DNA of 64,000 nt from a bacterium (GCA_016700035.1 CP064998.1:590790-654789), one strand, 5' to 3'. Shown: positions 4,459 through 58,344, counted from the stretch's first letter. A program made the numbers and translations. The notes: generated by a model not told the origin, from the letters alone.

Positions 4459-4510
4459 AATACACTTCTATATTTAGTGTCATTTTAAATCTAAGCTAAG
4501 GAACAAATAC

Positions 4511-5155
4511 ATGAGTAAGTGGATATTTGGAGTAGTCATTTTGGCTATTATTGGGTTTTCTACATATGCCCTGACAAGAAGCGATGAGCAGTTAGCCGCT
4601 ACAGAGAACATTTCAAGTGAAGGTTCTAAGAATTACTACGGCAATCTTGATAGCCCAGTGACACTCACGGAGTTTGTGGACTTCCAGTGTGAAGCCTGTT
4701 ATGCCTACTACCCGCACGTTAAAGAAATAAAAGAAAAGTACAAAGATCGCGTTAAATTTCAGATAAAAAACATGCCGATCTCTTCATCTCACAAGTCCGC
4801 TGCTCAGGCTGCTTACTCAGCCGAAGCTGCTGCACGCCAGGATAAATTCTTCGAAATGCATAATAAGCTATTCGAAGAGCAGAAGACTTGGGAGCAAGCG
4901 AAAGACCCTACTTCACTCTTTGAGAAATATGCCCAAGCTATTGGCCTGAATATGGAGAAGTTCAAGTCTGACGTAAAAAGTGCCGAGGTAGAGGCCGTGA
5001 TCAAGAAAGACCTTGCAGATGCGACCGCGCTCAAGGCTAGCGGCACGCCTACCTTTGTGCTGAACGGTCAGATGATAGAAAACCCTGGCCCATCGGTAGA
5101 AGCGCTTTCTAAGGTCCTGGACGATGCTTTAGCGAGCAGTAACACCCAACAATAA
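4511..5155 (+). CDS. DsbA-family thiol:disulfide oxidoreductase, membrane-anchored
   Basis: CxxC motif (FQCEACYAYYP) in a thioredoxin-fold context, plus an N-terminal TM. Confidence 0.75.
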   Translation: MSKWIFGVVILAIIGFSTYALTRSDEQLAATENISSEGSKNYYGNLDSPVTLTEFVDFQCEACYAYYPHVKEIKEKYKDRVKFQIKNMPISSSHKSAAQAAYSAEAAARQDKFFEMHNKLFEEQKTWEQAKDPTSLFEKYAQAIGLNMEKFKSDVKSAEVEAVIKKDLADATALKASGTPTFVLNGQMIENPGPSVEALSKVLDDALASSNTQQ

Positions 5156-5419
5156 GGTTAGCGTACTGGATGCCTAGCTAGCAGTTGAAAAAGCTGGGCA
5201 TCCTATTCCTAGCTAGGTGCTATTAATTCGCCAGATAAATCAAAGGTTTCAGCAAGGTGCTTTAGTCTATGATCTTCATGCGCCCCTATTGCGGCTGTTT
5301 GCAATGCGTCAACGATCCTGCACCACAGTATAGATTAAATGGTGCTTGAAGCGGTATAGCTTCAAATATTAAAGTCTCATTGAAGTTATTTTTGATATAA
5401 TGACGAAAAAGGAGTACGG

Positions 5420-5770
5420 ATGGTCACACCTGAACAGGTACACAACTACGCCAGGCAAAAATTTAATGAAGAAGATCCAAGCGACAGAATAGAAGACGCA
5501 GGTTTTGCATACTATATTAATACTCAACCAAGAGAGTACCTAGATACAGAAGATATTCATAAAATGATGATTGGCAACGGGCCACTTGTCGTAATCAAAG
5601 AAACAGGTGATGTATATTCATTTTCTTCAAATCCAGCCCATATGTTTGGCGACCCAGAAACAAGAATCGGGGTTAATACTGCAAGAACCACCGAAGAATT
5701 CCATACAGCGTTATCTGCCTTAATAGATAAAGGTGCCACTTCAGCCAATCCGATTGACCACATTAACTAG
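5420..5770 (+). CDS. Hypothetical protein
   Basis: ORF preceded by the RBS aaaggag. Confidence 0.45.
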   Translation: MVTPEQVHNYARQKFNEEDPSDRIEDAGFAYYINTQPREYLDTEDIHKMMIGNGPLVVIKETGDVYSFSSNPAHMFGDPETRIGVNTARTTEEFHTALSALIDKGATSANPIDHIN

Positions 5771-6003
5771 ATTAAGTCAGACAATAATTTGAAAATTGTC
5801 ACAAGATTTTCTAGCCTTGCGTTCTAGCAGTTTTTAATAGCTACCGTTTGAACTGTGTCAACTATCTTGAACCAAACTCTATAGCTACAGGTAAAGAATA
5901 AACCATATAATTAAAAGTAACTTTGGACAACTTAAGCGGCTGTCTTTTATATGAAGTAGTTTATCAAAACCAAAGATAAGGGGCACTCGCGCCCATGCGC
6001 TTA

Positions 6004-6882
6004 CTAGCCTGCCTCCAGCTCTAACTGCTCCGACAACGAAGCGGTGGCATCAAGGTCATCAAGAATCTCCAATATCTCTGGATCTTGAGCATAACGACCA
6101 CCGCTGGCATGCTTAGCGATTTCTCGCAACGTACTCATCGCCACAATATGCGATAGTCCGCTCCTGCGACACAGTGCATCATAAATATCTAGAATATTAA
6201 TAAGTTTTTCGGCTCGATCATAAGCACTATTTTCACCAAAATTATATTTCTGATTATAAACATCGCTACCTTCATCAAAAATACCGTCCGGATTATCGTC
6301 GCGCATACGATGATGTGATACTGCCCCAGCAATTGGCTCTCTTGGTATGCCAGCAGCATTAATAAGCAACTTTAACGTCCATTCTGTGTGAAGATCATAA
6401 AACTCTCTCAAGCTAATTGCGCAATCGATCCCCAGGCTATCAAACACTGCCTTAAAAGATTCTGCCCGTTGTGGAAAATACACCATAAAAAAACTGTTTA
6501 AGCTATCCATTAAAACTTCGGTGGGAAGATTTTCAAGTGCATAAATATCAACAAACAACTGAGCTTGCTCCATAGATGCTTCAGGCGGGCCAGTTTTACC
6601 AATATCCGTAAGTAGAGTACCAACCCTAACAATATGCTTCTCGTCCGATGAATAGGCATGGCCACGCCGCTCAGCAACCCGAAAAACATCATCAGCCCGA
6701 CGAATAGCTGATATTTCGTCGGTAACAGTTTCGGTTTGATCAGCTAGTAATACTAGTCGGTCTCTTATTTGGCTATCGAGATCACTTGGAGCAATATCCA
6801 CCTCGCGTAATATACCTTCAATCAACGCGACGGGGTTTTTTTGATTATATTCTAATTGTACTTCCTGGCTCAAAACTCGCAC
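6004..6882 (-). CDS. HD-GYP-like domain protein with degenerate catalytic motifs (TD instead of HD; NPDG instead of GYP)
   Basis: LLTDIGKTGPPE aligns to the HDIGKIGIPD consensus. SHHRMRDDNPDGIF aligns to HHERxDGSGYPxGL. DIYDALCRRSG aligns to DVxDALTSxRPY. Confidence 0.55.
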   Translation of the reverse strand: MRVLSQEVQLEYNQKNPVALIEGILREVDIAPSDLDSQIRDRLVLLADQTETVTDEISAIRRADDVFRVAERRGHAYSSDEKHIVRVGTLLTDIGKTGPPEASMEQAQLFVDIYALENLPTEVLMDSLNSFFMVYFPQRAESFKAVFDSLGIDCAISLREFYDLHTEWTLKLLINAAGIPREPIAGAVSHHRMRDDNPDGIFDEGSDVYNQKYNFGENSAYDRAEKLINILDIYDALCRRSGLSHIVAMSTLREIAKHASGGRYAQDPEILEILDDLDATASLSEQLELEAG

Positions 6883-7018: not shown

Positions 7019-8215
7019 CTACCACCAAGATGTGTCTTTACTAACAGGTGGCGTGGGCGTAGATGTGGATGTAGGCGTATTTACACCACCACCAGATGGA
7101 GATGGAGTAGAAGTGCTCGTGCCACCATTAGTGCTACCGCCACTCGATGACACTGGTATATATGACGCAACTCCACTCTCTCCTGCTGATGTCGGGGCAA
7201 GCGAAGTTAAACCAGAACCGTCGAGATTAATACGATGCAATACTTGCTTAAACCAAACTGACTTTAGAAATACAATACTTGTAGAATCAGCCGAAAATGT
7301 GCCATTGGCATTCCCGCCACCATCAGCAATAACAGCAGTTGGATTCAGTGGGCCAGCTACAGAGCCCCGCATCATGTCACACGGACAACCATATATATTG
7401 CGAAAACTGAGCCACAGGTAGGTTTTTCCATCCGGTGATATATAAGGGTCGTAGTTCCAGCCTGGATCATTAGTGATACGCACTTCCTCTCGAGTCGCAT
7501 AGTCGATCTTAAACACATCTTGCTTCTGGCAAAGTCCAAAACATTCCCAGCCACGAATTAGCATAATTTGATTAGTTGTCGACCAAGATGGGTCGGACAC
7601 TACCGAATCAGATCCTTCAACCTTCATTTCTTTTGATATAACTTCTGGTGAGTTACCATTACTATCAATCACTACCACACGAGATTTAAATTCTGGTATC
7701 GTAGCCACCAAGACCATCTTGCTCGAATCCGGAGACCATTCGGCATGAGCCATACCTGTCCAGTTATAACTATCTCGCTTGGCTAAACTGATTATTTCCT
7801 GCTGATTACTGCCGTCTGTATTCATCACCCAAAGTCGATTACTATGGGTAGCAAAATTGACGCTCGAATCCTTACTAGCCTTCATAAATAATATTTTCTT
7901 GCCATCAGGACTAGGTCGAGCCCATTCATGCTGAGCAGAGGGATCATTCGTTAAGCGAACTTTATTACCACCATTTTTATCCATTTTCCAAATTTGGTTT
8001 GTTTCAGAGCCTTCTTTACTAGCAAAAAGGATGTGAGAATCGGTAGTGGCTACGGGTGTCGTACTGGTGGGCTTAGATGCAAATGATGCATATATAACGA
8101 CCGACAACACCACAGCAAACAGGCCGACAACCAACGGTGCTGGTGGGAGCTTAAATTTACGGTTTAGCAGTGCTGATGAGGTGGTTGCTTTTTTAGCCAT
8201 TTTTTTATTAGACAC
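7019..8215 (-). CDS. TolB-like beta-propeller (PD40 repeat) protein, N-terminally anchored, with a G/S/T/P-rich C-terminal tail
   Basis: Repeated WSPDG/PSPDGKKILF motifs, signal-anchor, low-complexity tail. Confidence 0.65.
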   Translation of the reverse strand: MSNKKMAKKATTSSALLNRKFKLPPAPLVVGLFAVVLSVVIYASFASKPTSTTPVATTDSHILFASKEGSETNQIWKMDKNGGNKVRLTNDPSAQHEWARPSPDGKKILFMKASKDSSVNFATHSNRLWVMNTDGSNQQEIISLAKRDSYNWTGMAHAEWSPDSSKMVLVATIPEFKSRVVVIDSNGNSPEVISKEMKVEGSDSVVSDPSWSTTNQIMLIRGWECFGLCQKQDVFKIDYATREEVRITNDPGWNYDPYISPDGKTYLWLSFRNIYGCPCDMMRGSVAGPLNPTAVIADGGGNANGTFSADSTSIVFLKSVWFKQVLHRINLDGSGLTSLAPTSAGESGVASYIPVSSSGGSTNGGTSTSTPSPSGGGVNTPTSTSTPTPPVSKDTSWW

Positions 8216-9521: not shown

Positions 9522-10565
9522 ATGAACCTGAATATCAAGGTGTTTATGACCCCGATCGTTGCCATCATCATGATGGCGGTGGCCGCGTGCAGTTGCACCG
9601 CGCCACCCGACGGTGGCGGAGCCACGACAACCTCGTCGACTACCACCAGCTCGACCAGTACAACTCTGCCCGAGCCGACCAGCTGGGAGTTCTCCCTGCG
9701 TGTCGGGATGCCGGCTGACCTTGTCGCCAAGTATGGCGGTGAGACCGCAGCTAAAGCCAAGGTTGAGCAACAACTGGCCAATGCCAATGTGCGCTTCACG
9801 AGTTTCGCCAAGCCGATCGTCTGGCGCATGAACGAGTTCTTCGTCTTTACCGGCGGAGCACTTGATCAGCTGGCGGTGCCACACCCAAACAGCGATTACC
9901 AGCTGCTGTACTCGGAAAACACCACACTCGATGACGGTGGCTGGAAGCCCCAGTCGAAGTCCATCGTGATTCGCTGGACTCCAGCTAGTGGTGGCGTGTT
10001 CGGTCCTTACGGAGCTGACTCACTCATCCACGAGCTGGGCCACGCCCGTGGCGCCATCGATATGTACGGCCTGAACGTGACCGGGGCCAACAACCCCGTC
10101 AATGGCCAGGGCTACACGCCGGCTGGTGGGTTCATGACCTACCCCTACGGTGCCACCGCTTGGGATGATTACTCGACGAGAGTCATCAATGCGTCGGCCG
10201 ACATGGTCTACAACGATGATCGTATCGTCCGGCAGTCCATCCCGGTCGTACAGGTGCACGCCACCAAGAATGGTGTGCCCGTGACTGGCGCCACGGTGGA
10301 GTTGTTCGGTTCTAGCTGGTACTCCGGCTCCGTCAACAGCTTTGCCAGCCAGACTGGAACGACCACAAACGGTAACTGGTTCGCTCCAGCCAACCCGTTT
10401 GAGGCCAACCCAGCAGCCTTCTGGAAGCTCAGCTTCCCGCTACTGCTGGTATGCGTCACCAGTGGAGCTTCGGTCGGCTACGGCTGGCTGGCTCTGCCGG
10501 ACGCCGGCAGCTGGTTCTTCACTCACCCGAGTGAAGCCTACCAGCTCAACGTCAACCTTGCCTGA
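9522..10565 (+). CDS. Secreted zinc metallopeptidase lipoprotein (HExxH), carried on a GC-rich (about 60%) insert
   Basis: Signal peptide plus lipobox (VAAC), HELGHA motif, and codon/GC composition sharply different from flanking DNA. Confidence 0.7.
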   Translation: MNLNIKVFMTPIVAIIMMAVAACSCTAPPDGGGATTTSSTTTSSTSTTLPEPTSWEFSLRVGMPADLVAKYGGETAAKAKVEQQLANANVRFTSFAKPIVWRMNEFFVFTGGALDQLAVPHPNSDYQLLYSENTTLDDGGWKPQSKSIVIRWTPASGGVFGPYGADSLIHELGHARGAIDMYGLNVTGANNPVNGQGYTPAGGFMTYPYGATAWDDYSTRVINASADMVYNDDRIVRQSIPVVQVHATKNGVPVTGATVELFGSSWYSGSVNSFASQTGTTTNGNWFAPANPFEANPAAFWKLSFPLLLVCVTSGASVGYGWLALPDAGSWFFTHPSEAYQLNVNLA

Positions 10566-14857: not shown

Positions 14858-15751
14858 ATGGGAAAAATAAACACCACTAAGACATCGCGTAACAACCACA
14901 ATCTTGGTCGCGTTAAGCAATTCAAACAACCAGCCATGCTGGCTGTTCTGGGGTTGTTTGCGATGGCTGGTAGCATCCTAATTTATGCCTCGCTGGCTAG
15001 CTCCACGCCAGTTGTAAACACTAATGCCGAGTTTTGGCGGGCTCGGATTGCTGGCTGCGAGTCTGGTTCGGGGCCAAATAGCCAGGGTCGTTACACTGCC
15101 TCCAATGGTTCTGGAAATTTTGGCGCCTACCAGTTTGATGTCCGTACTTGGCAAGGAGCTGTGGGACCAGAGTTAGCCACTCAATACCCCAATCCAACTC
15201 AAGCTCCACCAGAAATTCAAGATCAAGCTTTTTATAATACTTTTGCCAGACGCGGCAGTCAGCCCTGGAATGCCAGCTATAAATGCTGGCGTACCGATGA
15301 GTTAGCTGCCCGACCAATCGGTGTAATACCGTTAAGACTACCTAAGCTAGGTAAATCCTCCAACGTAGCCGAAGACCCGATCGTTGGTCCACCTAAATCT
15401 GCCTATAACATCAAGGTGCAAGGGCGTGTCTATGTTGACGGTAAACTTATACCAAATATTAAGCTTATTACCTGCGTTGATGGAGTTACCACCACAACTG
15501 GATCAGGCGGCGTATATAGCTTTGAATTACCAGCCGGAAATAACTATTGTGTACGCGTAATTGAAGGCCTACCGGCCAATGCACGATTAGATAAAACTAA
15601 CAATAACCCAGAGCGAGCCGCCGATACTAGCTACGAACATCAACTGGCTGGCAAGAACTATTACCGAAACCTCTGGCAGTTTTTCACACCCTATTACACC
15701 TGGGATCGAGCCAGCGATGAAAACACCGATTTTTGGTTCGTCACCCATTAG
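14858..15751 (+). CDS. Membrane-anchored Rpf-like transglycosylase-domain protein with a C-terminal Ig-like/CarboxypepD_reg-like domain
   Basis: ARIAGCESGSG...GAYQFDVRTWQ...KCW closely matches the resuscitation-promoting-factor/transglycosylase-like domain. N-terminal TM. Confidence 0.7.
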   Translation: MGKINTTKTSRNNHNLGRVKQFKQPAMLAVLGLFAMAGSILIYASLASSTPVVNTNAEFWRARIAGCESGSGPNSQGRYTASNGSGNFGAYQFDVRTWQGAVGPELATQYPNPTQAPPEIQDQAFYNTFARRGSQPWNASYKCWRTDELAARPIGVIPLRLPKLGKSSNVAEDPIVGPPKSAYNIKVQGRVYVDGKLIPNIKLITCVDGVTTTTGSGGVYSFELPAGNNYCVRVIEGLPANARLDKTNNNPERAADTSYEHQLAGKNYYRNLWQFFTPYYTWDRASDENTDFWFVTH

Positions 15752-32436: not shown

Positions 32437-32548
32437 AACCTACATTATATATGAAAAATATGACCACCCGGCATGGGATAGCCATACTAATCATCGTCAT
32501 TAATACCTATACTTAATAATAACTGATTGGTGTAATAATATTACAATC

Positions 32549-33163
32549 CTATCGCTTAATTGGGTAGTTAGTTGATCCAAGTCGATACATCGAATACACA
32601 TAAACAGGCTTATCCCCAGCTGAACGAGCAATGAAGTTAATGTATCTAGGTATACCCGTAGTATTGCCATCTAAATATAGACAACGAGTGAAATTTCCGG
32701 GTGCAAGGGGTCCAATTGCACCGCCTGAAGATGCAGCAATGGCACTACTATTGCCTTGTAGATATGCCATTATCGCCCAAGATCCCACCTCCCCGGTTGA
32801 ATATCCTTCAAAGCAGTATGTATCACCCTGGGGGACACTGGAATATTCAAATACTGAAATACGGTTTTGCCCATCTGAGCTAATTCGACTCTGAATAGCC
32901 GGTCTATTATTTTTTGTAGCCATACTACCAGATTCAACCTTAAGCATTGAGGCCGTCCAAGTGTACGCCGCAGCCTTACTTAAACGCACAAATAGGTAGC
33001 CAAGCCCCACCACTAATACTGCCCCAATCAATACAGCTACTTTCCAACTAAACTTACGCTTTTTATTCAGGACACTTAAGCCAGCTATCCGACTCTTTGG
33101 TTTAGCTTTAGACTTAGTCGATTTAGTTAATGGCTTTTTAGTAGTTGATATTTTAGCTGACAT
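32549..33163 (-). CDS. Cassette small protein A: Lys-rich cytoplasmic N-tail, single TM, Cys-containing ectodomain (no PG-binding domain)
   Basis: N-terminus MSAKISTTKKPLTKSTKSKAKPKSRIAG..KKRKFSWK is almost identical to paralogs B and C. Confidence 0.6.
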   Translation of the reverse strand: MSAKISTTKKPLTKSTKSKAKPKSRIAGLSVLNKKRKFSWKVAVLIGAVLVVGLGYLFVRLSKAAAYTWTASMLKVESGSMATKNNRPAIQSRISSDGQNRISVFEYSSVPQGDTYCFEGYSTGEVGSWAIMAYLQGNSSAIAASSGGAIGPLAPGNFTRCLYLDGNTTGIPRYINFIARSAGDKPVYVYSMYRLGSTNYPIKR

Positions 33164-33218
33164 TGAGATTATACCCTCTTATTTGTTTAGATATTAAATG
33201 TATTAATACTTATGCTTA

Positions 33219-33248
33219 AATTTAGCTGACCTGCAACTAGTCTGTCAA
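33219..33248 (-). promoter_or_regulatory. Conserved sigma70-like promoter (TTGACA-N18-TAAATT) of cassette small gene A
   Basis: Same element and leader (aagcataagtattaatacattaatatctaaa) found upstream of copies B and C. Confidence 0.5.
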
Positions 33249-34696
33249 ACTTTCTTAGGTTTCTTTTTGAAATATAGGTAGTATCCAACTAGCCCAGCCA
33301 CCGAGACATATACCACCCATTCACCCAGATATGTGTAAATGGTTTTTACACTGTTAGCCTGCACACTAGCCATTACTGCGCCACCAGATTTAGCATAGTT
33401 TTTTGCAAGTACTCGCCCGTCCTTATCTATAATATAAGCTGGCCCACCCTTTGCCCCCTGAATAAACGGGCGGGCATGGGCAACTGCTGCAAGCTTATTC
33501 ATATTTTGGCTTTCAACATGAAACAGGGGTGATATTCCCATCGTGTCTAGGGCAGCCGAGTTAGTAAAGATGTTTGCACCGGCCTGAGCTAGCTGACTAT
33601 AAAAATCAGGCGCTATTACCCCAGAACAAGCGTGTGCGCCATAACTCACCCCTTCAAAAATATAGGGTTTTTCTATTTCTCTACCACGATTAACACTCTT
33701 CTGATTATTAAAGTCGAGCAGTAACTGCTCCTGGCCAGCATAGGCCAACACTACTTGATACAGATACGGCACATACTCACCGGCCGGTACCACAAACCAT
33801 TTTTGTTGCTGGTTTAAAATCCTGCCATCAGTTGCTTGAAAGGTTAGCATGTTGTGACCTATACCAGCAACGTTTTCACGCGCACTATGTATGATTAACC
33901 CGTCAGACTTCTTCATTACTCGACCAATAACCGGCTTATCGGCTTCAATCCCTTCTTCAAAATAATGTGAATACTCGGGCAGCACTAATACATCTAGTGA
34001 CCTATCTGCAAAACCCTTAAGCTGTTCGTATGATTCTTTTGAGAACATTGTGGGCTGATCCTTATAGGGATAACGAACAGCTCCAACCATTCTTTGCGGG
34101 CCGCTCGACTGCGCATAGAGTATGTAGCCCAGCCAAGATAACGTAGCTAAAACTAAGATAATCGGCGCAAAAGGTACAATTGAACGCTTCTTATACGATT
34201 GATAGCCGGCCACAAATAACAGCGCAACCACACCGCTTAGTAAATATAATCCACCAAACCTCGCCATAAACACTAGTGGAGTTTCGGCTAAATAGTAGCC
34301 AAAATTACCAAATGTCCAATACGGCCCGATTTGCCCACCCGGACCCATACTGGTAATGGAAAAAATAACAGCTCGAGCATATTCTGCCACCAGCCAAAGT
34401 GCTGGAACTATAATCAATGCGCGACCTTCAGATAGCTTGAGCTTAAATAATCTATATAGCCATAAGAACAATACAAAACCCAGCGCAAAGCTGGCTGTCA
34501 TAATTAATCCAGCCGAAAGTCCTACTACCTTAATTGCAAAACCCTGAGCAATCTCGGCAGTTCGTACGCCAAACATCCACGATACGACCACCCCAAAATA
34601 CACACAACCAACTAAGAAAGCTGTCCAGTATGGATGGTTGTGGGTGAAGTTACGGAGGCGATGGTGACGGGCGTTATGACGCTTGTGTTTTTTCAT
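33245..34696 (-). CDS. Lnt-like integral membrane carbon-nitrogen hydrolase (apolipoprotein N-acyltransferase-like), paralog A
   Basis: His-rich N-terminus, five N-terminal TM helices, CN-hydrolase domain (VLPEYSHYFEE...YGAHACSGV), C-terminal TM: Lnt topology. Confidence 0.6.
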   Translation of the reverse strand: MKKHKRHNARHHRLRNFTHNHPYWTAFLVGCVYFGVVVSWMFGVRTAEIAQGFAIKVVGLSAGLIMTASFALGFVLFLWLYRLFKLKLSEGRALIIVPALWLVAEYARAVIFSITSMGPGGQIGPYWTFGNFGYYLAETPLVFMARFGGLYLLSGVVALLFVAGYQSYKKRSIVPFAPIILVLATLSWLGYILYAQSSGPQRMVGAVRYPYKDQPTMFSKESYEQLKGFADRSLDVLVLPEYSHYFEEGIEADKPVIGRVMKKSDGLIIHSARENVAGIGHNMLTFQATDGRILNQQQKWFVVPAGEYVPYLYQVVLAYAGQEQLLLDFNNQKSVNRGREIEKPYIFEGVSYGAHACSGVIAPDFYSQLAQAGANIFTNSAALDTMGISPLFHVESQNMNKLAAVAHARPFIQGAKGGPAYIIDKDGRVLAKNYAKSGGAVMASVQANSVKTIYTYLGEWVVYVSVAGLVGYYLYFKKKPKKV

Positions 34697-34721
34697 CTGT
34701 TAGTGATTATGCTGTTAGTGA

Positions 34722-34766
34722 GAGAAAAAATAAAGCCCACTTGATATGTTTATCCAGAGGGCTTTA
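34722..34766 (-). terminator. Weak hairpin plus T-run after cassette small gene B
   Basis: aaagccca...gggcttt with flanking A/T runs; imperfect stem. Confidence 0.35.
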
Positions 34767-34802
34767 TTTAGTTTAGTTATTTGGTGTACCAATACTTTTT
34801 AA

Positions 34803-35753
34803 CTACAGTGTACAACCTTGTTTAGCAGCTGGATCAGAGCAATTATTGGCCTGAACCATGCGCGCCCAAGTTCTAGGGCCAACCACTCCATCTTGAGTGA
34901 GGCCAGTCTTTTGTTGGAATAATTTTACATTATCGGCAGTTTTTTGACCATAGATACCATCTACATCTATGGTATAGCCTAACTGTTTAAGTTTTAGTTG
35001 AATCATCGAGACACAGAAGTTTTGATTACCAATACCATTGTTCATATTAGCGCAGTCTGGTGTGTTAGGAGCGGGGGCTGGAGGGGCAGGAGCGGGGGCT
35101 GGAGTACTGAGGCTGGCATTGGGTTGGGTGGGGGCTTGGGCGGGAGGGGCGGATATAAGCTCTTCACGCATAGAATAGAAGTAGGCCTTTTGACCAACCG
35201 CCGCATCAATAATAAAGTAGATATCCTTACGTGCCTGGGCGCTTTTAGCCTCAAGGTCGAAACATTTTGTAGCTTTACCATTTGTTGGCCCATCTAACCT
35301 CTCATAAAATCCAAACTTAGTCGTATCATTAACATACGCCCAAGATGAAATCGTGACAGGACCAGACGTTGCATACTGAAAGCAGTAGCTGGTCTTACCA
35401 TAATATATTCCATCGACGCTACTAGTTAAGCTGATGCTCTCGATCCCATTTTTTTCAATAGATCCAATTGCCTGCGAGCCGTCAATTTTGTTAACAACCT
35501 CTCCAGCTAAGTCGCCACCTGCGTAACGCCACTCTGTAGCCCCAAGCACCCTACTATTACCTGCCTGACTCAACCGTACAAACAAATAGCCTAGAGCTGC
35601 GACCAGTACGACTACAATAATGATAGCTATTTTCCAGTTAAACTTGCGTTTTTTGTTTAATATACTAGAGCCAGCTATCCGACTCTTTGGTTTGGTTTTA
35701 GACTTAGTAGATTTAGTTAATGGTCTTTTAGGAGTTGATACTTTAGCGGGCAT
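34803..35753 (-). CDS. Cassette small protein B: Lys-rich N-tail, TM, variable Cys ectodomain, Pro/Ala linker, C-terminal peptidoglycan-binding (PG_binding_1-like) domain
   Basis: LGYTIDVDGIYGQKTADNVKLFQQKTGLTQDGVVGPRTWARM matches the PG-binding domain. PAPAPAPPAPAP linker. Confidence 0.65.
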   Translation of the reverse strand: MPAKVSTPKRPLTKSTKSKTKPKSRIAGSSILNKKRKFNWKIAIIIVVVLVAALGYLFVRLSQAGNSRVLGATEWRYAGGDLAGEVVNKIDGSQAIGSIEKNGIESISLTSSVDGIYYGKTSYCFQYATSGPVTISSWAYVNDTTKFGFYERLDGPTNGKATKCFDLEAKSAQARKDIYFIIDAAVGQKAYFYSMREELISAPPAQAPTQPNASLSTPAPAPAPPAPAPNTPDCANMNNGIGNQNFCVSMIQLKLKQLGYTIDVDGIYGQKTADNVKLFQQKTGLTQDGVVGPRTWARMVQANNCSDPAAKQGCTL

Positions 35754-35811
35754 TGTAGTTATGTTTCCTTAGTATTTATTTAGATATTTAATGTATTAAT
35801 GATTATGCTTA

Positions 35812-35840
35812 AATTTAGTTGAGGCACGGTGGAGTGTCAA
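35812..35840 (-). promoter_or_regulatory. Conserved promoter (TTGACA-N17-TAAATT) of cassette small gene B
   Basis: Aligned with the copies upstream of small genes A and C. Confidence 0.5.
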
Positions 35841-37312
35841 ATTTTTAGTTGGCGGTTTTTAAACCTAGAGAGAATATATTTTTTAATCAACATATAGGCA
35901 GTTACCGCAATTGCCCCATACACTATCCATTCACCTAAATAAGTGTATAGGGTTTTGGTTCCGTTAGTCTGCACATCTGCTACTACCACTCCACCAGTTT
36001 TAGAGAATGTAAAAGCCACCTCCCTACCGTCACGATCTAGGATATAGGCTGGACCACCTTTTGCTCCTTGAACAAATGGCTTGGCGTGCGCAACGGCAGC
36101 CAATCGATTAGTTTGCTCAGCTTCATAATGCAAGAGCGACGAAAGACCCATTGTATCTAGAGCGGCAGAGTTTATGAAAATATCTGACCCCTGCTGGGCT
36201 AGCTGATTATAAAAGTCCGGTGATAAAACCCCAGAACAAGCGTGCGCACCATACCGTACCCCACGATACTCGAATGGTCGCTCAGGTGTTTCGCCACGCT
36301 CCACACTCTTTTGTTGATTAAAGTTTAATAGCAGTTGTTCCTGGCCAGCGTAAGCTAAAATTACCTGATAAATATATGGCACATACTCGCCGGCCGGTAC
36401 CACAAACCACTTTTGCTGTTGGTTTAAAAGTTTACCATCGGCCGAGTGGAAACTCAGCATATTGTGCCCCAATGTCATAATATTCTCATTCGCACTATGC
36501 ACCACCAGGCCTTGCGCATCTTTTGTGACTGACTGAATAATCGCCGAATCAGGTGGAACGTCTTCACTCGAAGCAAAATAATGTGAATATTCTGGCAGAA
36601 CCAAAGTATCAACCTTCTGACCGACTCCCATACTCACCACATTATAACTTTCAGCAGCCGTGGTGTAGGCACTATTTTTATTAGCGTATCTTACTGCCCC
36701 AATACGTAGCATTGGACCGCTTGACTGACGATAAGCTAGCCAACCTAAGCCGGCTCCAACTGTCACGATACTCATTACCATAATTAATGGTTGCCATCGG
36801 CGCAGTTTATATAATTGGTAGCCAGCTACAAAAATTGCCACCACAACAAAACTAAGCAAATAAAGACCGCCAAATCGCGCTAAATAAACGAGTGGCGTCT
36901 CGGCAAGCAGATAGCCAAAGTCACCATACGCCCAATATGGCCCGATGCGCCCGCCTGGACCAAGGCTCACAATTGAAAATAATATAGCCCGCACATATTC
37001 TGCGACCACCCAAAGCATTGGGATAAGCCATACCGCTCTTGGCTCTGCTAGACTAATACGCAAGCGACGCTTGAGCCATACAAACAATACAAAGCCCAGC
37101 GATAGGCTGGTAATCATGATTATAGCCGCCGAAGCCGCCACTAGCTTGACGGCAAAACCTTGAGCAATCTCGGCTGTCCGTACGCCAAACATCCACGATA
37201 CTACCACTCCAAAATACACACAACCAATTAGAAAAGCTGTCCAGTATGGACGGTTGTGAGTGAAGTTACGAAGGTGGTGATGACGACTGTTATTACGCTT
37301 GTGTTTTTTCAT
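35837..37312 (-). CDS. Lnt-like integral membrane carbon-nitrogen hydrolase, paralog B
   Basis: Same architecture as paralog A. DNA identity is about 85-88% in several blocks. Confidence 0.6.
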   Translation of the reverse strand: MKKHKRNNSRHHHLRNFTHNRPYWTAFLIGCVYFGVVVSWMFGVRTAEIAQGFAVKLVAASAAIIMITSLSLGFVLFVWLKRRLRISLAEPRAVWLIPMLWVVAEYVRAILFSIVSLGPGGRIGPYWAYGDFGYLLAETPLVYLARFGGLYLLSFVVVAIFVAGYQLYKLRRWQPLIMVMSIVTVGAGLGWLAYRQSSGPMLRIGAVRYANKNSAYTTAAESYNVVSMGVGQKVDTLVLPEYSHYFASSEDVPPDSAIIQSVTKDAQGLVVHSANENIMTLGHNMLSFHSADGKLLNQQQKWFVVPAGEYVPYIYQVILAYAGQEQLLLNFNQQKSVERGETPERPFEYRGVRYGAHACSGVLSPDFYNQLAQQGSDIFINSAALDTMGLSSLLHYEAEQTNRLAAVAHAKPFVQGAKGGPAYILDRDGREVAFTFSKTGGVVVADVQTNGTKTLYTYLGEWIVYGAIAVTAYMLIKKYILSRFKNRQLKI

Positions 37313-37340
37313 CTGTAAGTGATTATGCTGTTAGTGGAGG

Positions 37341-37380
37341 GAAAAATAAAGCCCCTTTGGTTGAATTATCCAGGGGGCTT
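37341..37380 (-). terminator. Hairpin terminator after cassette small gene C (bidirectional hairpin with T-runs on both sides)
   Basis: aaagcccc...gggggcttt; on the minus strand it is followed by tttattttt. Confidence 0.55.
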
Positions 37381-37420
37381 TATTTAGTTTAGTTATTTGA
37401 TATACCAATGTTTCTACTAA

Positions 37421-38500
37421 CTAGAGTGTACAACCTTGTTTAGCAGCTGGATCAGAACAGTTATTGGCCTGGACTAGGCGAGCCCAAGTTCTGGGACCAG
37501 TTATACCATCTTGTGGTAGACCTGTTCTTTGCTGGAATAGCTTTACATTATCAGCAGTTTTTTGACCATAGATACCATCTACATCTATGGTATAGCCTAA
37601 CTGTTTAAGTTTTAGTTGAATCATCGAGACACAGAAGTTTTGATTACCAATACCATTGTTCATATTGGCGCAGTCTGGTGTGTTAGGAGCGGGGGCTGGA
37701 GGGGCAGGAGCGGGGGCTGGAGTACTGAGGCTGGCATTGGGTTGGGTGGGGGCTTGGGCGGGAGGGGCGGGCGGGGTATCTAAGCTAGCATCACTAGGGC
37801 CAGAACTAACCGCGACGTATGAACGATTTGCCGACGAAATATAGAAGGCCTTATCTCTGTTGCCAGCCTTTATAGAAAAATCTGTATGAGCATAAAAAGT
37901 TATATATCTAGGTGTATTCCTTTGTGCATTGTTTGCGGGTGCTGGAATATTAGCACAAATTGTGAATCCATTATTACCTGTGCTATATTTTTCAACATTT
38001 TCACCATTAATAACAGCCGCCGCCCTACTATATAGTACGTCTTGTCTTAAGCTATGCATTGACGACTCATCATTGATATAAACCGCTCTGATTTCCCATT
38101 TGTCAACACTGGCGTATTTTGTCACTCCATTAAAGCAGTATCGTGCATTATGATCTACTTTCGAGTTTATATAAAGATATACCTGAGAGCCTGTAGTATA
38201 TCCTTCTTTATATTGTGACTGTATAACATCTCTCCCATTAGATAATGTGTCGCGAGTACCTACGTAAGACCCTCTAAACCCCATTTGTCCGGTCTGCCAC
38301 GAATAATCAGCCCCCGCCTGACTCAACCGCACAAACAAATAGCCTAGAGCTACAGCTAATACGGCTACAATGACTATGGCTATCTTCCAATTAAACTTAC
38401 GTTTTTTGTTTAGAGCACTAAGGCCAGCTATCCGACTCTTTGATTTAGATTTGGTAGATTTAGTTAATGTCTTTTTAGGAGTTGATGCTTTAGCAGGCAT
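37421..38500 (-). CDS. Cassette small protein C: Lys-rich N-tail, TM, variable ectodomain, Pro/Ala linker, C-terminal PG-binding domain
   Basis: The last about 120 codons are nearly identical at DNA level to paralog B. PG_binding_1-like motif. Confidence 0.65.
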   Translation of the reverse strand: MPAKASTPKKTLTKSTKSKSKSRIAGLSALNKKRKFNWKIAIVIVAVLAVALGYLFVRLSQAGADYSWQTGQMGFRGSYVGTRDTLSNGRDVIQSQYKEGYTTGSQVYLYINSKVDHNARYCFNGVTKYASVDKWEIRAVYINDESSMHSLRQDVLYSRAAAVINGENVEKYSTGNNGFTICANIPAPANNAQRNTPRYITFYAHTDFSIKAGNRDKAFYISSANRSYVAVSSGPSDASLDTPPAPPAQAPTQPNASLSTPAPAPAPPAPAPNTPDCANMNNGIGNQNFCVSMIQLKLKQLGYTIDVDGIYGQKTADNVKLFQQRTGLPQDGITGPRTWARLVQANNCSDPAAKQGCTL

Positions 38501-38547
38501 TGTAATTATGTTCCCTTATTCTTTATTTAAATATTTAATGTATTAAT

Positions 38548-38576
38548 GCTTATGCTTATGCTTATGCTTATGCTTA
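38548..38576. repeat. Hexanucleotide microsatellite (GCTTAT)x4.8 in the leader of cassette small gene C
   Basis: gcttatgcttatgcttatgcttatgctta. Only about 1.8 units at the equivalent position of copies A and B. Confidence 0.85.
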
Positions 38577-38606
38577 ATTTTAGCTGAACTGTAGTTGGAC
38601 TGTCAA
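38577..38606 (-). promoter_or_regulatory. Conserved promoter (TTGACA-N18-TAAAAT) of cassette small gene C
   Basis: Aligned with the copies upstream of small genes A and B. Confidence 0.5.
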
Positions 38607-38695: not shown

Positions 38696-38950
38696 CTAGC
38701 GCGCCGATAAAGCCGCATCTAGCTTGGGTTTATCAAACCCAATAATAATCTCCCCGCTGATGTCCGTTACTGGCACACCCATTTGCTGAGACTTATCGAT
38801 CATCTCCTGTGCCTTTGCCGGATCAGCCATCACATTGACTTCTTCAAAAGCAATACCCTTCTCATCTAAGTAGGCTTTTACGTGCTTACAGAATACACAT
38901 GTCGGTGTAGTATAGACAATTATTTTATCTTTTGCTGTTGAGTCAACCAT
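38696..38950 (-). CDS. Glutaredoxin-like / NrdH-like small redoxin (CVFC). Start is at the internal ATG after the GGGAG RBS; the ORF track extends to 39043.
   Basis: IIVYTTPTCVFCKHVKAYLDEKGIAFEEVNV is a glutaredoxin-fold signature. Confidence 0.7.
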   Translation of the reverse strand: MVDSTAKDKIIVYTTPTCVFCKHVKAYLDEKGIAFEEVNVMADPAKAQEMIDKSQQMGVPVTDISGEIIIGFDKPKLDAALSAR

Positions 38951-39021
38951 ATTTTTAATCTCCCTATAATCACCTACATTATACAATATATTCTTATCTA
39001 TTTTAACCCTAAAGTGGCCGA

Positions 39022-46401: not shown

Positions 46402-46752
46402 CTAAGACTGCGGCTTCTCGGCTTGCTTAGTGTGGGGCATACATACACCATCCTTGCATTCTCCGCCTTCAAATAAAATCTTTAGTTCTTCCGGATTATG
46501 TGCACCACACAACGCTTGGCCAGTTTGAGTATTAATAAAGCTTGGTACCGCCATAAAACCTCCACAGGCAGACTCAATCAACCCAGCATACTGTCGCATC
46601 TTCTTCTCATTCTCAGAATTATTCCAAACCTCAAGTTTTACTATCTCGCCACCTAAATCTTTTTCCAGCTGAGCTACTACCGGGCGCATTGCTATGCAGT
46701 GCGGGCAAGTTTCACCGTAAAATTCAATAATATGATTAAGATTCATCCTCAT
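46402..46752 (-). CDS. Thioredoxin-like protein (CPHC). Start is at an internal Met; the ORF track extends to 46797.
   Basis: YGETCPHCIAMRP thioredoxin active-site context. Confidence 0.65.
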   Translation of the reverse strand: MRMNLNHIIEFYGETCPHCIAMRPVVAQLEKDLGGEIVKLEVWNNSENEKKMRQYAGLIESACGGFMAVPSFINTQTGQALCGAHNPEELKILFEGGECKDGVCMPHTKQAEKPQS

Positions 46753-47206
46753 CCTCCTCTTTTTTCTTGCGACCAGACAGCCAATATATGACAGCAAAGA
46801 TAAATATTAGAGTTGATGTTAGAGCCGAGAGTAAACAGTACTGACACCAGGCTCGCAATACAAATGCCTGAATCGATGTCAGCCCAAGCGAGCTAATAAA
46901 TCCAATTGTTGACCAAGCTAAGATTGGCAGACGTCTAATTGGCTCTCGGTTTATAACGCTAAACATCACCAAAAATAGTACCACTCCATAAAAAACCACT
47001 CCCAACATCGCCACCGGAATACCCAAGACTGGCAACTCTGCAAACCGGCTCGTCAGAACTCGCTCGCAACCACCGGTAAAACTACACGTTAAGCCATCCC
47101 TAGTGTAATGCTCGATGGTTAAAATTGTCGCATCGATTAAACCAACGACAGATAGCAAGCCAAAAACTATCTGTGGCCAACCAAAGCGCCTACTGGCCTG
47201 TGCCAT
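46736..47206 (-). CDS. VKOR-family (vitamin K epoxide reductase-like) membrane oxidoreductase
   Basis: Loop Cys pair CSFTGGC and TM CxxC (CQYC); 4-5 TM. Confidence 0.7.
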   Translation of the reverse strand: MAQASRRFGWPQIVFGLLSVVGLIDATILTIEHYTRDGLTCSFTGGCERVLTSRFAELPVLGIPVAMLGVVFYGVVLFLVMFSVINREPIRRLPILAWSTIGFISSLGLTSIQAFVLRAWCQYCLLSALTSTLIFIFAVIYWLSGRKKKEEDEDES

Positions 47207-47885
47207 ACGCTGCTTCTACTGCCTGCTTTATCTTGCCCTTCAAACCTTCTGCCCCTCCATCACTCCTCATATTGAACTCAACCCCATCAATAAAGATTGT
47301 TGGAGTTCCTTGTATACCAAGCTCCAAGCCAAAATCCTTATCTCGCTTAATCGTATCCTTGCCGGTTTCAGCATTGAGATCGCGTGAGAAATCATCTGTA
47401 TTCAAACCGAGCTCACGAGCGTACTCAATAAACTTATCCTTAGGATCACCTAGCTCCGCCCAATCATCTTGATTTGCATAGAGCTTATCATGCATTTCCC
47501 AAAATTTACCTTGCTTAGCTGCCGATTCTGCTGCATAGGCCGAAACCATAGCATTTTTATGAGGCGATGGATAAAGTGGAAAATGCTTAAAGACCAGCCT
47601 GACCTTACCTTCATTTTCAGCTAGAATTTCAGTTAGAGTAGGCTCAAAAGACTTACAAGCTGGGCACTGGAAGTCAGCAAACTCCGAAAGTACCACTTTA
47701 GCATCGCTTGCACCACGACTCTGTCCCTGCTTAAGCTCTTCTTTCTGCTTATCATTTAATGTTTTGGTAGTTGGGCTAGATGATGGCTTTACGTCATTGT
47801 TTTCAGACATCGAAGCCCGCACAGCAAAAATAAGTAATGCAATAATCACAACCGTAAATAGAATGGGTATCAAATATTTCTTCAT
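47190..47885 (-). CDS. DsbA-family thiol:disulfide oxidoreductase, membrane-anchored
   Basis: FADFQCPACKSFEP CxxC motif. The stop overlaps the VKOR start. Confidence 0.75.
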   Translation of the reverse strand: MKKYLIPILFTVVIIALLIFAVRASMSENNDVKPSSSPTTKTLNDKQKEELKQGQSRGASDAKVVLSEFADFQCPACKSFEPTLTEILAENEGKVRLVFKHFPLYPSPHKNAMVSAYAAESAAKQGKFWEMHDKLYANQDDWAELGDPKDKFIEYARELGLNTDDFSRDLNAETGKDTIKRDKDFGLELGIQGTPTIFIDGVEFNMRSDGGAEGLKGKIKQAVEAAYGTGQ

Positions 47886-47921: not shown

Positions 47922-48185
47922 CTATAAATTTTCAAGATCTGAGGTTAGAGCATCAAGTTCCCGATCAATATCCGCATCATTGTTGGCCTCAATTTCTTTC
48001 TGATCAGCTTTAACCTCTTCAATTGACGCTGGTGCAACCGGGGTTGAAGACTCGGCTTTATTTTTGGTAGTAGTTTTTGCGGGCTGTGGAGCTACCGCCA
48101 CAAAGATGAGCGCCCCAAGCACAACAAGTATTCCAATAATTATCAATCCTTCTATTATTCCAAAGCCCTTTTGTTTTCTATTCAT
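47922..48185 (-). CDS. Prepilin-type N-terminal domain protein (type IV pilin/pseudopilin-like). Start is at the internal Met.
   Basis: QKGFGIIEGLIIIGILVV resembles the class III signal (KG|F...E+5). Confidence 0.55.
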   Translation of the reverse strand: MNRKQKGFGIIEGLIIIGILVVLGALIFVAVAPQPAKTTTKNKAESSTPVAPASIEEVKADQKEIEANNDADIDRELDALTSDLENL

Positions 48186-48828
48186 TACTAGCTCCTCCCG
48201 AGTTAGATGCATTAGCTGGCTGTCTCTCAAATGCCTGGATTACTGCCGAAAGATAGGCCTTAACTGACTGACGATAGGCCTTAATAGATGTACGAAAAAC
48301 CTGTACTTCGGCACGAATTAGCTCAGCCTGCTCCTTAGCATTATCATCCTGGCAGTTAAAGCCCTTTGCCGCGTCACGTATGGCATCGACAGAAGCCCCA
48401 ACCACCTGGCGCTTTGAGGCAATATCGGCCACTAAAACATCGCCATTTGGTACGGTCAATCCTTTCTTACTAGCAAACACCTGAGCTCGCTCTAAGCGCT
48501 CTTGAATGCGCTCTCCAGCCCGAGTCGTTCGATCCTGCAATGCACTATATTTTTCCTGTATTTTCGATCGTTTCTGCTCACAGCGAGCTATTCTGGCCTG
48601 ATCTTTCTTCTCGGTCTTCTTAGCTTTGGCTGAGTCGACTAAATCCTGCCGACGTTGTTGAGATTTTTCGCGCAAGCTTTTTATATTGTCTAAATTCTGC
48701 GCAGTATTTGATGCCGTACTGCCATGACCATGTTCAGTTTCGCTTTGATGAGCATTAGCAATATGGGGCGCAAAAACAAATACTGTGCCAAATAATATGC
48801 TAAACATTAAAAAAGATACTTTTTTCAA
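48178..48828 (-). CDS. Secreted charged coiled-coil protein
   Basis: Signal peptide MKKVSFLMFSILFGTVFVFAPHIANA. K/E/R/Q-rich helical body. Confidence 0.5.
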   Translation of the reverse strand: MKKVSFLMFSILFGTVFVFAPHIANAHQSETEHGHGSTASNTAQNLDNIKSLREKSQQRRQDLVDSAKAKKTEKKDQARIARCEQKRSKIQEKYSALQDRTTRAGERIQERLERAQVFASKKGLTVPNGDVLVADIASKRQVVGASVDAIRDAAKGFNCQDDNAKEQAELIRAEVQVFRTSIKAYRQSVKAYLSAVIQAFERQPANASNSGGASNE

Positions 48829-56946: not shown

Positions 56947-58344
56947 CTAATATCCACGGAGAGGTAGCGGATAGCGTCCATCACCTAACTGATAACTACA
57001 ATCCTGCTGTGCTACATAGCAACGATTTACAATTGTCTGAAAAGCTGATGGATCCCAAGCAAATACATAGTCGGCGTGTCCTGAATATCCCCCAGGTCCG
57101 TTGGTATAATTATCACTTGAAAGGCGCCAATTACGTGTGTCCGTACCACTTGGCACGCGCCAACGCACAAACATCTTGAGATTTGGTAGCGACTCTGGAT
57201 GCGACGGGGGGCAACCAGCATTATCACTGATCGGAGTAATACTGGCAGAGGTGTTTTGCCAATTACCATATTCAACATGCGAACGTCCATTAGTAGAGCG
57301 TAAGTTTACACCATCCCAACATTGCGGAAACTCGATAGTCATCACTAATACCTCACCAGAAGTGCAGTTTGGAATACCTAGCCCCTCACTCTGGCGTTCT
57401 CTGTCGGTGGCAACGGAACTCTCACAATAATAATGAACTGGATACGACCCATTTCGTACAGGCTGAGGTGAACTTGTGGCAGTAGCTGGATTACCAGCGA
57501 TCATCTGGAGACCAAGTGGAAAAGGCTTAATACTACGATAGCCAACACCTTGATAGCCAACTTTATAGTAGAGCTCTAAATCACTGTTATACAATCCTCT
57601 ATCGTCATTTGGCGCAATTGGCCTACCGGTCGCCGTATCAACCATAGATGGAATCCAGTAAGCCGATCTATTGAACGTACCACCAGCACAAGTGGAACTA
57701 CCGCTACTGAGTAAGCTTGCCGAGGTTGAGGAATAGTTTGTGTCACTATTACCAAAATATGTATGCAAATGAGCCTTGTTTGGTTGACCTGGATACAATA
57801 GAGGATCGTCATTATTCATATGCGAATAATCACAGCGTGTACGAAATGCACCTGGCTCACCATCATTAATACCATCATCCCACAAGGTCGGTGGCGTCAA
57901 CCTAATGGGGGTTACATTATTAATTCTAACTTGCGCTATACCTGGCTTTGGTACGGGTATTAAAGACTCATTAATGCATGGCCCCATTGCAGACATTGAG
58001 CCTATGCCAGGAGTACAGTTCATCGTGTGATCAGTTGGCATCTCAGAGCATCCAAACTTTATATATTTACCGTCTGAAGCTGTTGGGTCATTGGCAGTCT
58101 CTACACAACCATTCATATTTCCAGTTGCTCTCTGCTCACTCTTAGACCAGCTTTCCGGCTCGGTTTGTGAGGGACTGGCAGCAAAGGCAAAAAATGCTAC
58201 AAAAATACCCAGTAATACAACCAATATACCAGCAATCATAAGTTGCCTTTTAGAAAACCTACTGAATGATAGTGCCGATCCGCCTGTTCTAGATTTTGTA
58301 GCCTTCTTCTTTACCTTCACACGACTTCTGTTGCTAGCTGCCAT
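56947..58344 (-). CDS. Secreted/anchored Cys-rich protein, possibly DUF1996-like
   Basis: N-terminal TM; PGQPNKAHLHTYFGN resembles the DUF1996 H-x-H-x-F-G motif. Weak assignment. Confidence 0.45.
   Translation of the reverse strand: MAASNRSRVKVKKKATKSRTGGSALSFSRFSKRQLMIAGILVVLLGIFVAFFAFAASPSQTEPESWSKSEQRATGNMNGCVETANDPTASDGKYIKFGCSEMPTDHTMNCTPGIGSMSAMGPCINESLIPVPKPGIAQVRINNVTPIRLTPPTLWDDGINDGEPGAFRTRCDYSHMNNDDPLLYPGQPNKAHLHTYFGNSDTNYSSTSASLLSSGSSTCAGGTFNRSAYWIPSMVDTATGRPIAPNDDRGLYNSDLELYYKVGYQGVGYRSIKPFPLGLQMIAGNPATATSSPQPVRNGSYPVHYYCESSVATDRERQSEGLGIPNCTSGEVLVMTIEFPQCWDGVNLRSTNGRSHVEYGNWQNTSASITPISDNAGCPPSHPESLPNLKMFVRWRVPSGTDTRNWRLSSDNYTNGPGGYSGHADYVFAWDPSAFQTIVNRCYVAQQDCSYQLGDGRYPLPLRGY

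Follow-up and report, generated by a model that had tools for sequence, protein, structure and literature searches.

An Lnt-like acyltransferase paired with a dedicated leader points to a route for lipid-anchoring or displaying surface proteins in Saccharibacteria

In enteroaggregative and enterotoxigenic Escherichia coli, the Lnt homologue AatD is necessary and sufficient to acylate the N-terminal glycine of CexE and Aap after the action of signal peptidase I (PMC7943197). Here, we analysed a 64,000-nucleotide stretch of DNA from a Saccharibacteria genome (GCA_016700035.1, CP064998.1:590790-654789; one strand, called the window throughout), in which two Lnt-like membrane enzymes, L1 and L2, alternate with three small, putatively exported proteins, S1 to S3, that share one leader. 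The five corresponding open reading frames (ORFs) occupy positions 38500-32549 on the minus strand in the order S1-L1-S2-L2-S3, flanked by thioredoxin reductase and glutaredoxin genes on one side and by uvrB on the other. Like other Patescibacteria, Saccharibacteria grow attached to bacterial hosts and cannot make their own lipids, and how they build their envelopes is poorly understood. All five ORFs of the initial annotation of this region were borne out at the stated coordinates, on the minus strand, but its statement that the arrangement could not be mapped to a described system was not, since AatD acting on CexE and Aap is a close mechanistic precedent (PMC7943197). Our analysis of the locus and its relatives points to the enzyme-plus-leader pairing as a hitherto undescribed means by which surface proteins may be displayed or anchored through a lipid.

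The Lnt-like enzymes and the leader encoded beside them

The pairing of the Lnt-like enzyme with leader genes is conserved across Saccharibacteria, in more than 30 species. When the enzyme profile was run against one genome for each GTDB species, 40 loci were obtained, nearly all of them from Saccharibacteria; two came from other Patescibacteria and two from Cardinium, the latter resembling canonical Lnt. For 37 species-level loci from GTDB representatives, the genes in the neighbourhoods collected via the enzyme profile were ranked by their position relative to the Lnt-like gene. Leader-type genes made up 42 of the 124 genes (34%) within two positions of it, versus 4 of 210 (2%) at least six positions away (odds ratio 26, Fisher p = 2e-16), and further adjacent leader genes, missed by the classifier, were seen by eye. 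In most Saccharibacteria loci, one to more than ten leader-type genes form a same-strand array beside the enzyme gene (for example, five downstream in L007, 5 + 7 in L035 and 2 + 5 in L033). Since the housekeeping flanks differ between lineages, being Grx/UvrB in some loci and S1/IF2 and others elsewhere, the linkage of enzyme and leader does not reflect inherited synteny alone. The metagenome-assembled genome CAYMMM01 carries two Lnt-like paralogues at separate loci (L016 9173-11098 and L029 6943-9932), each with its own leader subtype (...LGYLFLRLSRA versus ...LGFIYIFFSKA), which suggests that the pairing is paralogue-specific in this genome. The initial annotation had read the window locus as a repeated pairing of an Lnt-like enzyme with a surface protein, and this pairing is found by synteny to recur across Saccharibacteria. 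The S-type neighbours of the enzyme are annotated as hypothetical proteins, and in the literature on Lnt-like genes of Saccharibacteria and Patescibacteria we found no paper linking these to anything.

Both enzymes matched LNT_N (PF20154) in Pfam, with E = 1.7e-11 and 8.5e-08. CN_hydrolase (PF00795) was found above the gathering score in L1 (E = 7e-07) and below it in L2 (E = 0.005), and the Lnt equivalog TIGR00546 was matched end to end by L1 and L2 with 89.0 and 91.6 bits, under its curated cut-off of 132.9 bits. A single-sequence search of L1 against PDB sequences gave no match, and a profile of 23 sequences was needed. By hhalign, the probability of a match to E. coli Lnt was 98.7% over 415 columns, starting at E. 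coli residue 49; the probability for AatD (sequence taken from NC_017627) was 6%. Residues E241, K301, E309 and C359 are invariant among 23 homologues, whose named sources are all Saccharibacteria or Patescibacteria, and they fall on E267, K335, E343 and C387 of E. coli Lnt in the profile alignment. The AlphaFold2 (AF2) model of L1 (pLDDT 86, pTM 0.87), compared with PDB structure libraries as were all fold comparisons here, matched the Lnt structures from Pseudomonas aeruginosa and E. coli (5n6m and 8b0p) with a Foldseek E of 4e-19 and a TM-score of 0.70 over about 490 columns. L1 and L2 have a His/Arg-rich N-terminus, five predicted N-terminal hydrophobic helices and one C-terminal helix, which spans residues 462-490 of the model, and the model places the catalytic domain outside the membrane, between the fifth and the C-terminal helix. 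The earlier description of the large proteins as Lnt-like membrane CN-hydrolases with this topology thus agrees with the profile searches, the intact catalytic triad and the fold match. Around the nucleophile, L1, L2 and the homologues, where readable, carry A-C-S-G, as against I-C-Y-E in Lnt and AatD. The Tyr and Glu that directly follow the nucleophile in a canonical Lnt (C-Y-E) correspond to Y388 and E389 of the E. coli enzyme, which have been reported as essential, and they are absent from L1 and L2. Judged from the profiles and the model, L1 and L2 are divergent, catalytically plausible members of the Lnt superfamily; they fall short of what defines a canonical Lnt by sequence.

The first 62-64 or so residues of S1, S2 and S3 are nearly invariant in an alignment, as expected from the common Lys-rich tail and hydrophobic anchor noticed initially. 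In these three proteins the Lys-rich tail is followed by KFNWK, a transmembrane helix with a Gly at -10, and R-L-S-x-A, after which comes G or A (the sites read ...RLSQA|G and ...RLSKA|A). Leaders from other lineages are built in the same manner: a long Lys/Ser/Thr-rich tail leads into a motif of aromatic and basic residues, which reads KFNWK in the S proteins and FKFRWW in other lineages, and the core consists of a helix of about 19 residues, a Gly at -10 that hardly ever varies, and R-[FL]-S-x-A with G, S or A as the next residue. We collected 50 non-redundant leaders from the window and the related loci using a pattern whose only fixed element was [RHQ]-[FLMY]-S-x-A behind a hydrophobic stretch. 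Positions that were not part of this pattern proved to be conserved as well, namely Gly at -10 (49 of 50), Ala at -13 (41 of 50), Lys at -31 and a Trp directly before the helix; S-x-A is present in all collected leaders, but it was demanded by the collecting pattern itself. A Ser at -3, an Ala at -1 and a small residue at +1 match the requirements of signal peptidase I. Of the 50 leaders, 46 have G, S or A at +1 (G17/S17/A12), and the corresponding counts in a set of 33 leaders are A14/G12/S5. In a protein search of a representative library, the S-type leader subtype was carried by 36 clusters, always at residues 1-66 of proteins 100-597 amino acids (aa) long, and a metagenome scan with the leader alignment matched one contig of 3.2 kb.

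Within the window, the strict leader motif is confined to S1, S2 and S3, and other exported proteins with long basic N-regions end differently (...ASFAS, ...ASLAS, ...FAFAAS). As such N-regions also occur on these other proteins, the Lys-rich tail can be regarded as a habit of the lineage: it seems to be a general signal-peptide feature there, while the W...G-x4-R-[FL]-S-x-A core appears to be specific. The products of 7019-8215 (PD40 repeat), 14858-15751 (transglycosylase-like) and 56947-58344 (DUF1996) have basic, acid-free N-regions of 30-45 aa before the hydrophobic core and do not contain the KFNWK / G-x4-R-L-S-x-A motif. Other types of export signal were considered for S1-S3 and rejected. 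A twin-arginine translocation (Tat) signal was dismissed for KKRKFNWK, which has no twin arginine and is replaced by FKFRWW in other lineages. The leaders do not contain the classical G-F-T-x-I-E motif of type IV prepilins, which is present in a pilin-like protein near one Lnt-like gene (L038), and they are not those of lipobox lipoproteins, with no Cys in or near the leader. Elsewhere in the window (47922-48230), a small ORF encodes an N-terminus like that of type IV prepilins (KQKGFGIIEGLIIIGILVV).

Variable ectodomains and organization of the locus

Nine otherwise divergent ectodomains share the invariant residues Y52, C53 and C97 in an alignment, which confirms the conserved Y-C...C pair reported initially. 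The ectodomain of S3, the sole one modelled, is predicted to form a beta-jelly-roll resembling carbohydrate-binding modules (CBMs), with only 5-11% sequence identity to the CBMs among its structural matches. No CBM family in Pfam or NCBIfam was matched by the S proteins, and ligand-binding residues are not identifiable. The Pro/Ala linker plus PG_binding_1 domain (PF01471) ascribed to two of the three proteins is indeed present in S1 (60.0 bits, E = 2.5e-16) and S2 (61.6 bits), with E values in the range of 1e-16 to 1e-17 and a cut-off of 23 bits, and a PF01471 match is lacking in S3 in Pfam. Among 5.8 billion proteins, the ectodomain profile found just 8 clusters, and an iterated hidden Markov model (HMM) search across the fetched loci ended at nine members without growth; the ectodomain family therefore cannot be traced widely.

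In relatives, the cargo behind the leader includes CHAP amidase, GDSL lipase, DUF3472, GH43, PD40 and other propellers, Ig-like domains, CBM-like modules with or without PG_binding_1, and many Cys-containing peptides of 38-90 aa. Rows of such short cargoes with 2-4 Cys, which resemble secreted peptide or toxin families, are found at L033 12186-14746, L035 7355-10809 and L043 3586-4333. The mature parts of leader proteins almost always have an even Cys count. Adjacent genes at 46736-47206 and 47190-47885 of the window encode a VKOR-family protein and a DsbA-like thioredoxin, a probable extracytoplasmic disulfide-forming pair by sequence, and this fits the even Cys counts and disulfide-bonded, extracytoplasmic leader proteins.

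Comparison with a related strain revealed where the locus varies. The flanks and the enzyme genes are 79-93% identical in DNA, with 88-93% for the flanks, and the leaders and PG-binding ends are also kept, whereas the ectodomain segments 38312-37726, 35553-35108 and 32973-32506 found no DNA match in this strain, and the proteins encoded there in their place are unrelated to those of the window. Close counterparts of the S2 and S3 ectodomains exist in the more distant species at locus L007, the enzyme of which is about 60% identical. Within the window itself, S1 and S2 share 84% DNA identity in the leader, 91% over the 3'-terminal 300 nucleotides (linker and PG_binding_1) and none in between. 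Conserved ends around an unrelated middle are the signature of cassette exchange between conserved recombination arms. Taken at the sequence level, the ectodomains are hypervariable and these loci look like hot spots of surface variation, with wholesale swaps between strains that are about 90% identical; the view of the small proteins as rapidly diversifying extracytoplasmic proteins is strengthened by this comparison.

The locus represents a tandemly duplicated part of a gene arrangement that occurs across Saccharibacteria. Several stretches shared by the two units are 80-91% identical in DNA, which could be taken as a sign of a false duplication caused by assembly error or collapse. However, the L1 and L2 proteins are only 62% identical, as expected for an old duplication, the S ectodomains of the units are unrelated at the DNA level, and the same S-L-S-L-S order is present on an independently assembled 701-kb contig from the Joint Genome Institute (JGI) that belongs to a related strain and encodes an L1 with 93% identity. 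An assembly artefact, named in the initial annotation as a possible explanation, can therefore be practically dismissed. In the related strain at L001, three extra genes lie between the thioredoxin reductase and glutaredoxin genes (4273-6426) that are missing at the corresponding place of the window (~38700-39020); they encode a 101-aa protein, a Wzy_C / O-antigen-ligase-like protein and an M23 peptidase.

Each S gene has a promoter-like site before it and a terminator-like hairpin with a U-run after it (Table 1), and so looks like a promoter-to-terminator unit of its own; at the sequence level, the three S genes appear to be separate units. The promoter sites postulated initially are present in all three cases, and their -10 element TAAATT is correct for S2 and S3, but S1 has TAAAAT instead. 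The terminators postulated after each S gene were recovered by folding (z = -4.4, -5.8 and -4.2). L1 and L2 begin about 35-40 nucleotides past the terminators of the S genes, and the gaps (34697-34802 and 37313-37420) contain only a weak -10-like CATAAT. L1 and L2 may be expressed by terminator read-through, and since they sit behind terminators, enzyme levels are presumably below, and with dependence on read-through would be far below, those of the S proteins. In front of S1, the stretch from the -10 element to the ribosome-binding site contains a perfect hexamer repeat, which reads AAGCAT on the coding strand. Just one or two copies of this hexamer are present at S2, at S3 and at the orthologous site of the related strain (L001 6855-6870); the repeat may be length-variable and affect S1 expression.

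Table 1 Predicted features of the S-L-S-L-S locus (positions in the window)
Feature	Position	Strand	Description
S1	37421..38500	-	359 aa; ORF call, PF01471, leader alignment, ectodomain family alignment
S1 leader	38315-38500		aa 1-62
S1 ectodomain	~37796-38314		divergent, beta-rich; then Pro/Ala linker
S1 PG_binding_1	37475-37630		aa 291-342
L1	35837..37312	-	491 aa; predicted Lnt-family membrane acyltransferase; LNT_N and CN_hydrolase; E241, K301, C359
S2	34803..35753	-	316 aa
S2 leader	35562-35753		aa 1-64
S2 ectodomain	~35154-35561		divergent; then Pro/Ala linker
S2 PG_binding_1	34857-35012		aa 248-299
L2	33245..34696	-	483 aa; L1 paralogue with the same domains and triad
S3	32549..33163	-	204 aa; without PG-binding domain
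S3 leader	32972-33163		aa 1-64
S3 ectodomain	32552-32971		beta-jelly-roll (predicted)
Promoter-like site before S1	38577..38606	-	TTGACA-18-TAAAAT
Promoter-like site before S2	35812..35840	-	TTGACA-17-TAAATT; overlaps L1 end
Promoter-like site before S3	33219..33248	-	TTGACA-18-TAAATT; overlaps L2 end
Terminator-like hairpin and U-run, S1/L1 gap	37342..37382	-	folding -18.5 kcal/mol, z = -4.4
Terminator-like hairpin and U-run, S2/L2 gap	34725..34769	-	folding -18.6 kcal/mol, z = -5.8
Terminator-like hairpin and U-run, 3' of S3	32450..32488	-	folding -20.9 kcal/mol, z = -4.2
Perfect hexamer repeat	38546..38576	.	ATGCTT x 5.2; S1 5' untranslated leader

Candidate mechanism and alternative explanations

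By analogy with AatD, we propose with a probability of about 0.45 that the dedicated leader of the S proteins is cut by signal peptidase I and that the adjoining Lnt-like enzyme N-acylates the new N-terminus. The S proteins would be exported by Sec and cleaved after S-x-A; the enzyme would charge its catalytic Cys with an acyl chain drawn from a membrane phospholipid and pass this chain to the newly exposed alpha-amino group, and the product would be a Cys-independent, mono-N-acylated lipoprotein held at the cell surface. This would carry the AatD/CexE logic over to a monoderm epibiont. Glycan or peptidoglycan, either of the host or of the cell's own wall, would be the ligand of the displayed modules, and recombination between the conserved sequences of the leader and of the C-terminus would exchange the central cassette, giving rise to surface variation. 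A wider proposition, which we hold more tentatively, is that Saccharibacteria, apparently without Lgt and LspA, make lipoproteins by a two-step, cysteine-independent route of leader cleavage and N-acylation of G, S or A, and that this route serves a recombining host-interface repertoire. That repertoire may consist of proteins that bind glycans or the wall, enzymes that hydrolyse the wall, lipases and small Cys-peptides.

In the cultivated Southlakia epibionticum, the complete genome of which is available, an Lnt-like gene (SEML1_0502) and signal peptidase I are annotated, and the complete annotation tables list neither Lgt (PF01790) nor LspA (PF01252) (PMC10633639, Tables S1 and S2). SEML1_0502 is non-essential according to transposon sequencing (Tn-seq; PMC10633639). 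We found no Lgt or LspA candidate in the 64-kb window, and lipobox candidates were limited to 2 of 644 ORFs in the sampled Saccharibacteria DNA. The canonical lipoprotein route seems to be missing from at least one complete Saccharibacteria genome, and the rarity of lipoboxes together with the lack of annotated Lgt and LspA supports a non-canonical role of the Lnt-like enzymes. The sole window ORF with a classical lipobox (MMAVAA|CSC...) is located at 9522-10565; a Gly/Ser/Thr-rich linker comes next, and no Pfam domain was found in the protein. Should this protein be a genuine lipoprotein, Lgt and Lsp would have to be encoded in the genome.

Several observations weigh against cleavage and N-acylation of the S proteins. 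The leader helix of about 19 residues is long enough for a permanent signal anchor, and AF2 models one unbroken helix over residues 40-63. The folded domain starts just 2-3 residues past the predicted cleavage site and leaves no lipoprotein-like tether, and the +1 residue varies between G, S and A, unlike the invariant Gly of AatD substrates. Moreover, the leader-enzyme association was measured from the enzyme loci outward only, the Lnt-like gene of Southlakia has no obvious leader genes among its annotated neighbours, and the absence of Lgt and LspA rests on this distantly related organism and not on the source genome, where the window contains the plausible lipobox protein mentioned above. 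The S proteins could instead be uncleaved N-in anchors that hold glycan- or peptidoglycan-binding modules, with an enzyme that handles lipids, for example by de- or transacylating scavenged phospholipids and making lysolipids, so that both gene types would form one host-contact and lipid-acquisition module. We consider this unlikely, although the transmembrane length of the hydrophobic segment and the continuous helix of the model agree with it, and the conserved neighbourhood would equally fit a shared process. The first half-reaction of Lnt releases a lysophospholipid, a further point in its favour. In addition, Patescibacteria are described in a passage of PMC11665869 citing Probst 2020 as being without lipid synthesis, with lysolipids reported to be enriched. 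However, Lnt and AatD, the family members of known function discussed here, acylate protein N-termini (PMC7943197); a strict S-x-A with a following small residue and the Gly at -10 would be needed by a cleavage site and not by an anchor; and leader genes with cargoes of only 38-90 aa are hard to rationalise as encoding anchored receptors.

It is still less probable that L1 and L2 are housekeeping Lnt enzymes that act on Lgt/Lsp-processed Cys lipoproteins encoded elsewhere, the S genes being unrelated, co-duplicated bystanders. The enzymes are indeed closer to canonical Lnt than to AatD (98.7% versus 6% hhalign probability), which is also a point against the AatD-like proposal; their likeness to canonical Lnt extends over the full length of sequence and fold, the JGI annotation of their homologues is apolipoprotein N-acyltransferase, and the window encodes one plausible lipobox protein. 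On the other hand, L1 and L2 score below the TIGR00546 equivalog cut-off and carry C-S-G where Lnt and AatD have C-Y-E, a complete Saccharibacteria genome has an Lnt-like gene without annotated Lgt or LspA, lipobox candidates are scarce, and the leader genes stay beside the enzyme in more than 30 species while the flanks change. Acylation of the lysines of the tail, suggested in the initial annotation and in keeping with how markedly Lys-rich and conserved this tail is, is highly improbable on topological grounds: the basic tail precedes the helix and should be cytoplasmic by the positive-inside rule, and the CN-hydrolase domain is predicted on the outer face, as in the solved Lnt structures. 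Besides, long basic N-regions are also present on exported proteins of the window encoded away from Lnt-like genes.

Implications and comparison with described systems

If cleavage and N-acylation of the leader proteins are confirmed, this would be a lipoprotein-type anchoring that requires neither a lipobox Cys nor Lgt and Lsp, and it would extend the AatD principle from a plasmid-borne E. coli virulence system to a whole phylum. A set of surface or secreted proteins would become recognisable from sequence by one leader, and the leader-tagged proteins would rank first among the candidates for recognising the host, attacking the wall and setting strain-level specificity. As the Lnt-like gene is dispensable in a genetically tractable relative, the pairing would be open to a direct test. 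Should acylation turn out to be wrong, the leader motif, together with its linkage to Lnt-like genes, still serves as a useful guide for annotation, and the swapping of whole ectodomain cassettes between strains of about 90% identity still singles out these loci as hot spots of surface variation.

Parts of the locus have counterparts in well-known families. S1 and S2 resemble PG_binding_1 wall-binding proteins, scoring above the PF01471 gathering score, which S3 does not, and the fold of the S3 model is that of CBM6/35/36/61-type beta-jelly-rolls, at 5-11% identity and without a Pfam CBM match. With canonical Lnt (TIGR00546; PDB 5N6H, 5N6M, 8B0P), L1 and L2 have in common the domains, the triad and the equivalent of E343, the fold and an external catalytic domain. 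They differ from it in scoring under the equivalog cut-off, in their His/Arg-rich N-terminus and in the replacement of C-Y-E by C-S-G after the nucleophile. E. coli Lnt has eight helices, whereas about six are predicted in L1 and L2, whose alignment starts from E. coli residue 49. The putative substrates encoded beside L1 and L2 are without a lipobox, and Lgt and Lsp are not annotated in the complete Southlakia genome (PMC10633639).

Sortase/LPXTG and exosortase/PEP-CTERM systems are similar in that one short signal occurs on many unrelated exported proteins whose genes are clustered with that of a membrane-embedded processing enzyme. The signal described here is, however, N-terminal and resembles a Sec signal peptide, and the enzyme is of the CN-hydrolase acyltransferase type and not a transpeptidase; the processing of the S proteins is a prediction.

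The AatD system (PMC7943197) shares with the locus an Lnt-family acyltransferase with an E-K-C triad, substrates without a lipobox Cys, a signal peptide that ends in small-x-small followed by a small residue (Aap ...NAFA|GGSG; cleavage is predicted here), and the linkage of the enzyme to its substrates, here putative, at a dedicated locus. The sequence similarity of L1 and L2 to AatD is nevertheless negligible (hhalign 6%) and places them outside the AatD clade. No ABC/TolC export genes of the AatPABC type are present in this or the related loci, and the organism is monoderm. At +1, the leaders have G, S or A in place of the invariant Gly, they are about 60 aa long with a long basic tail, and each locus encodes many diverse putative substrates as opposed to one small protein; acylation of the S proteins is a prediction. 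An Lnt/AatD-type acyltransferase with co-encoded non-cysteine substrates would thus follow a known principle, for which AatD is the precedent. Distinctive here are a dedicated, phylum-specific leader, the many diverse and recombining cargoes, and their occurrence in a monoderm, lipid-auxotrophic organism.

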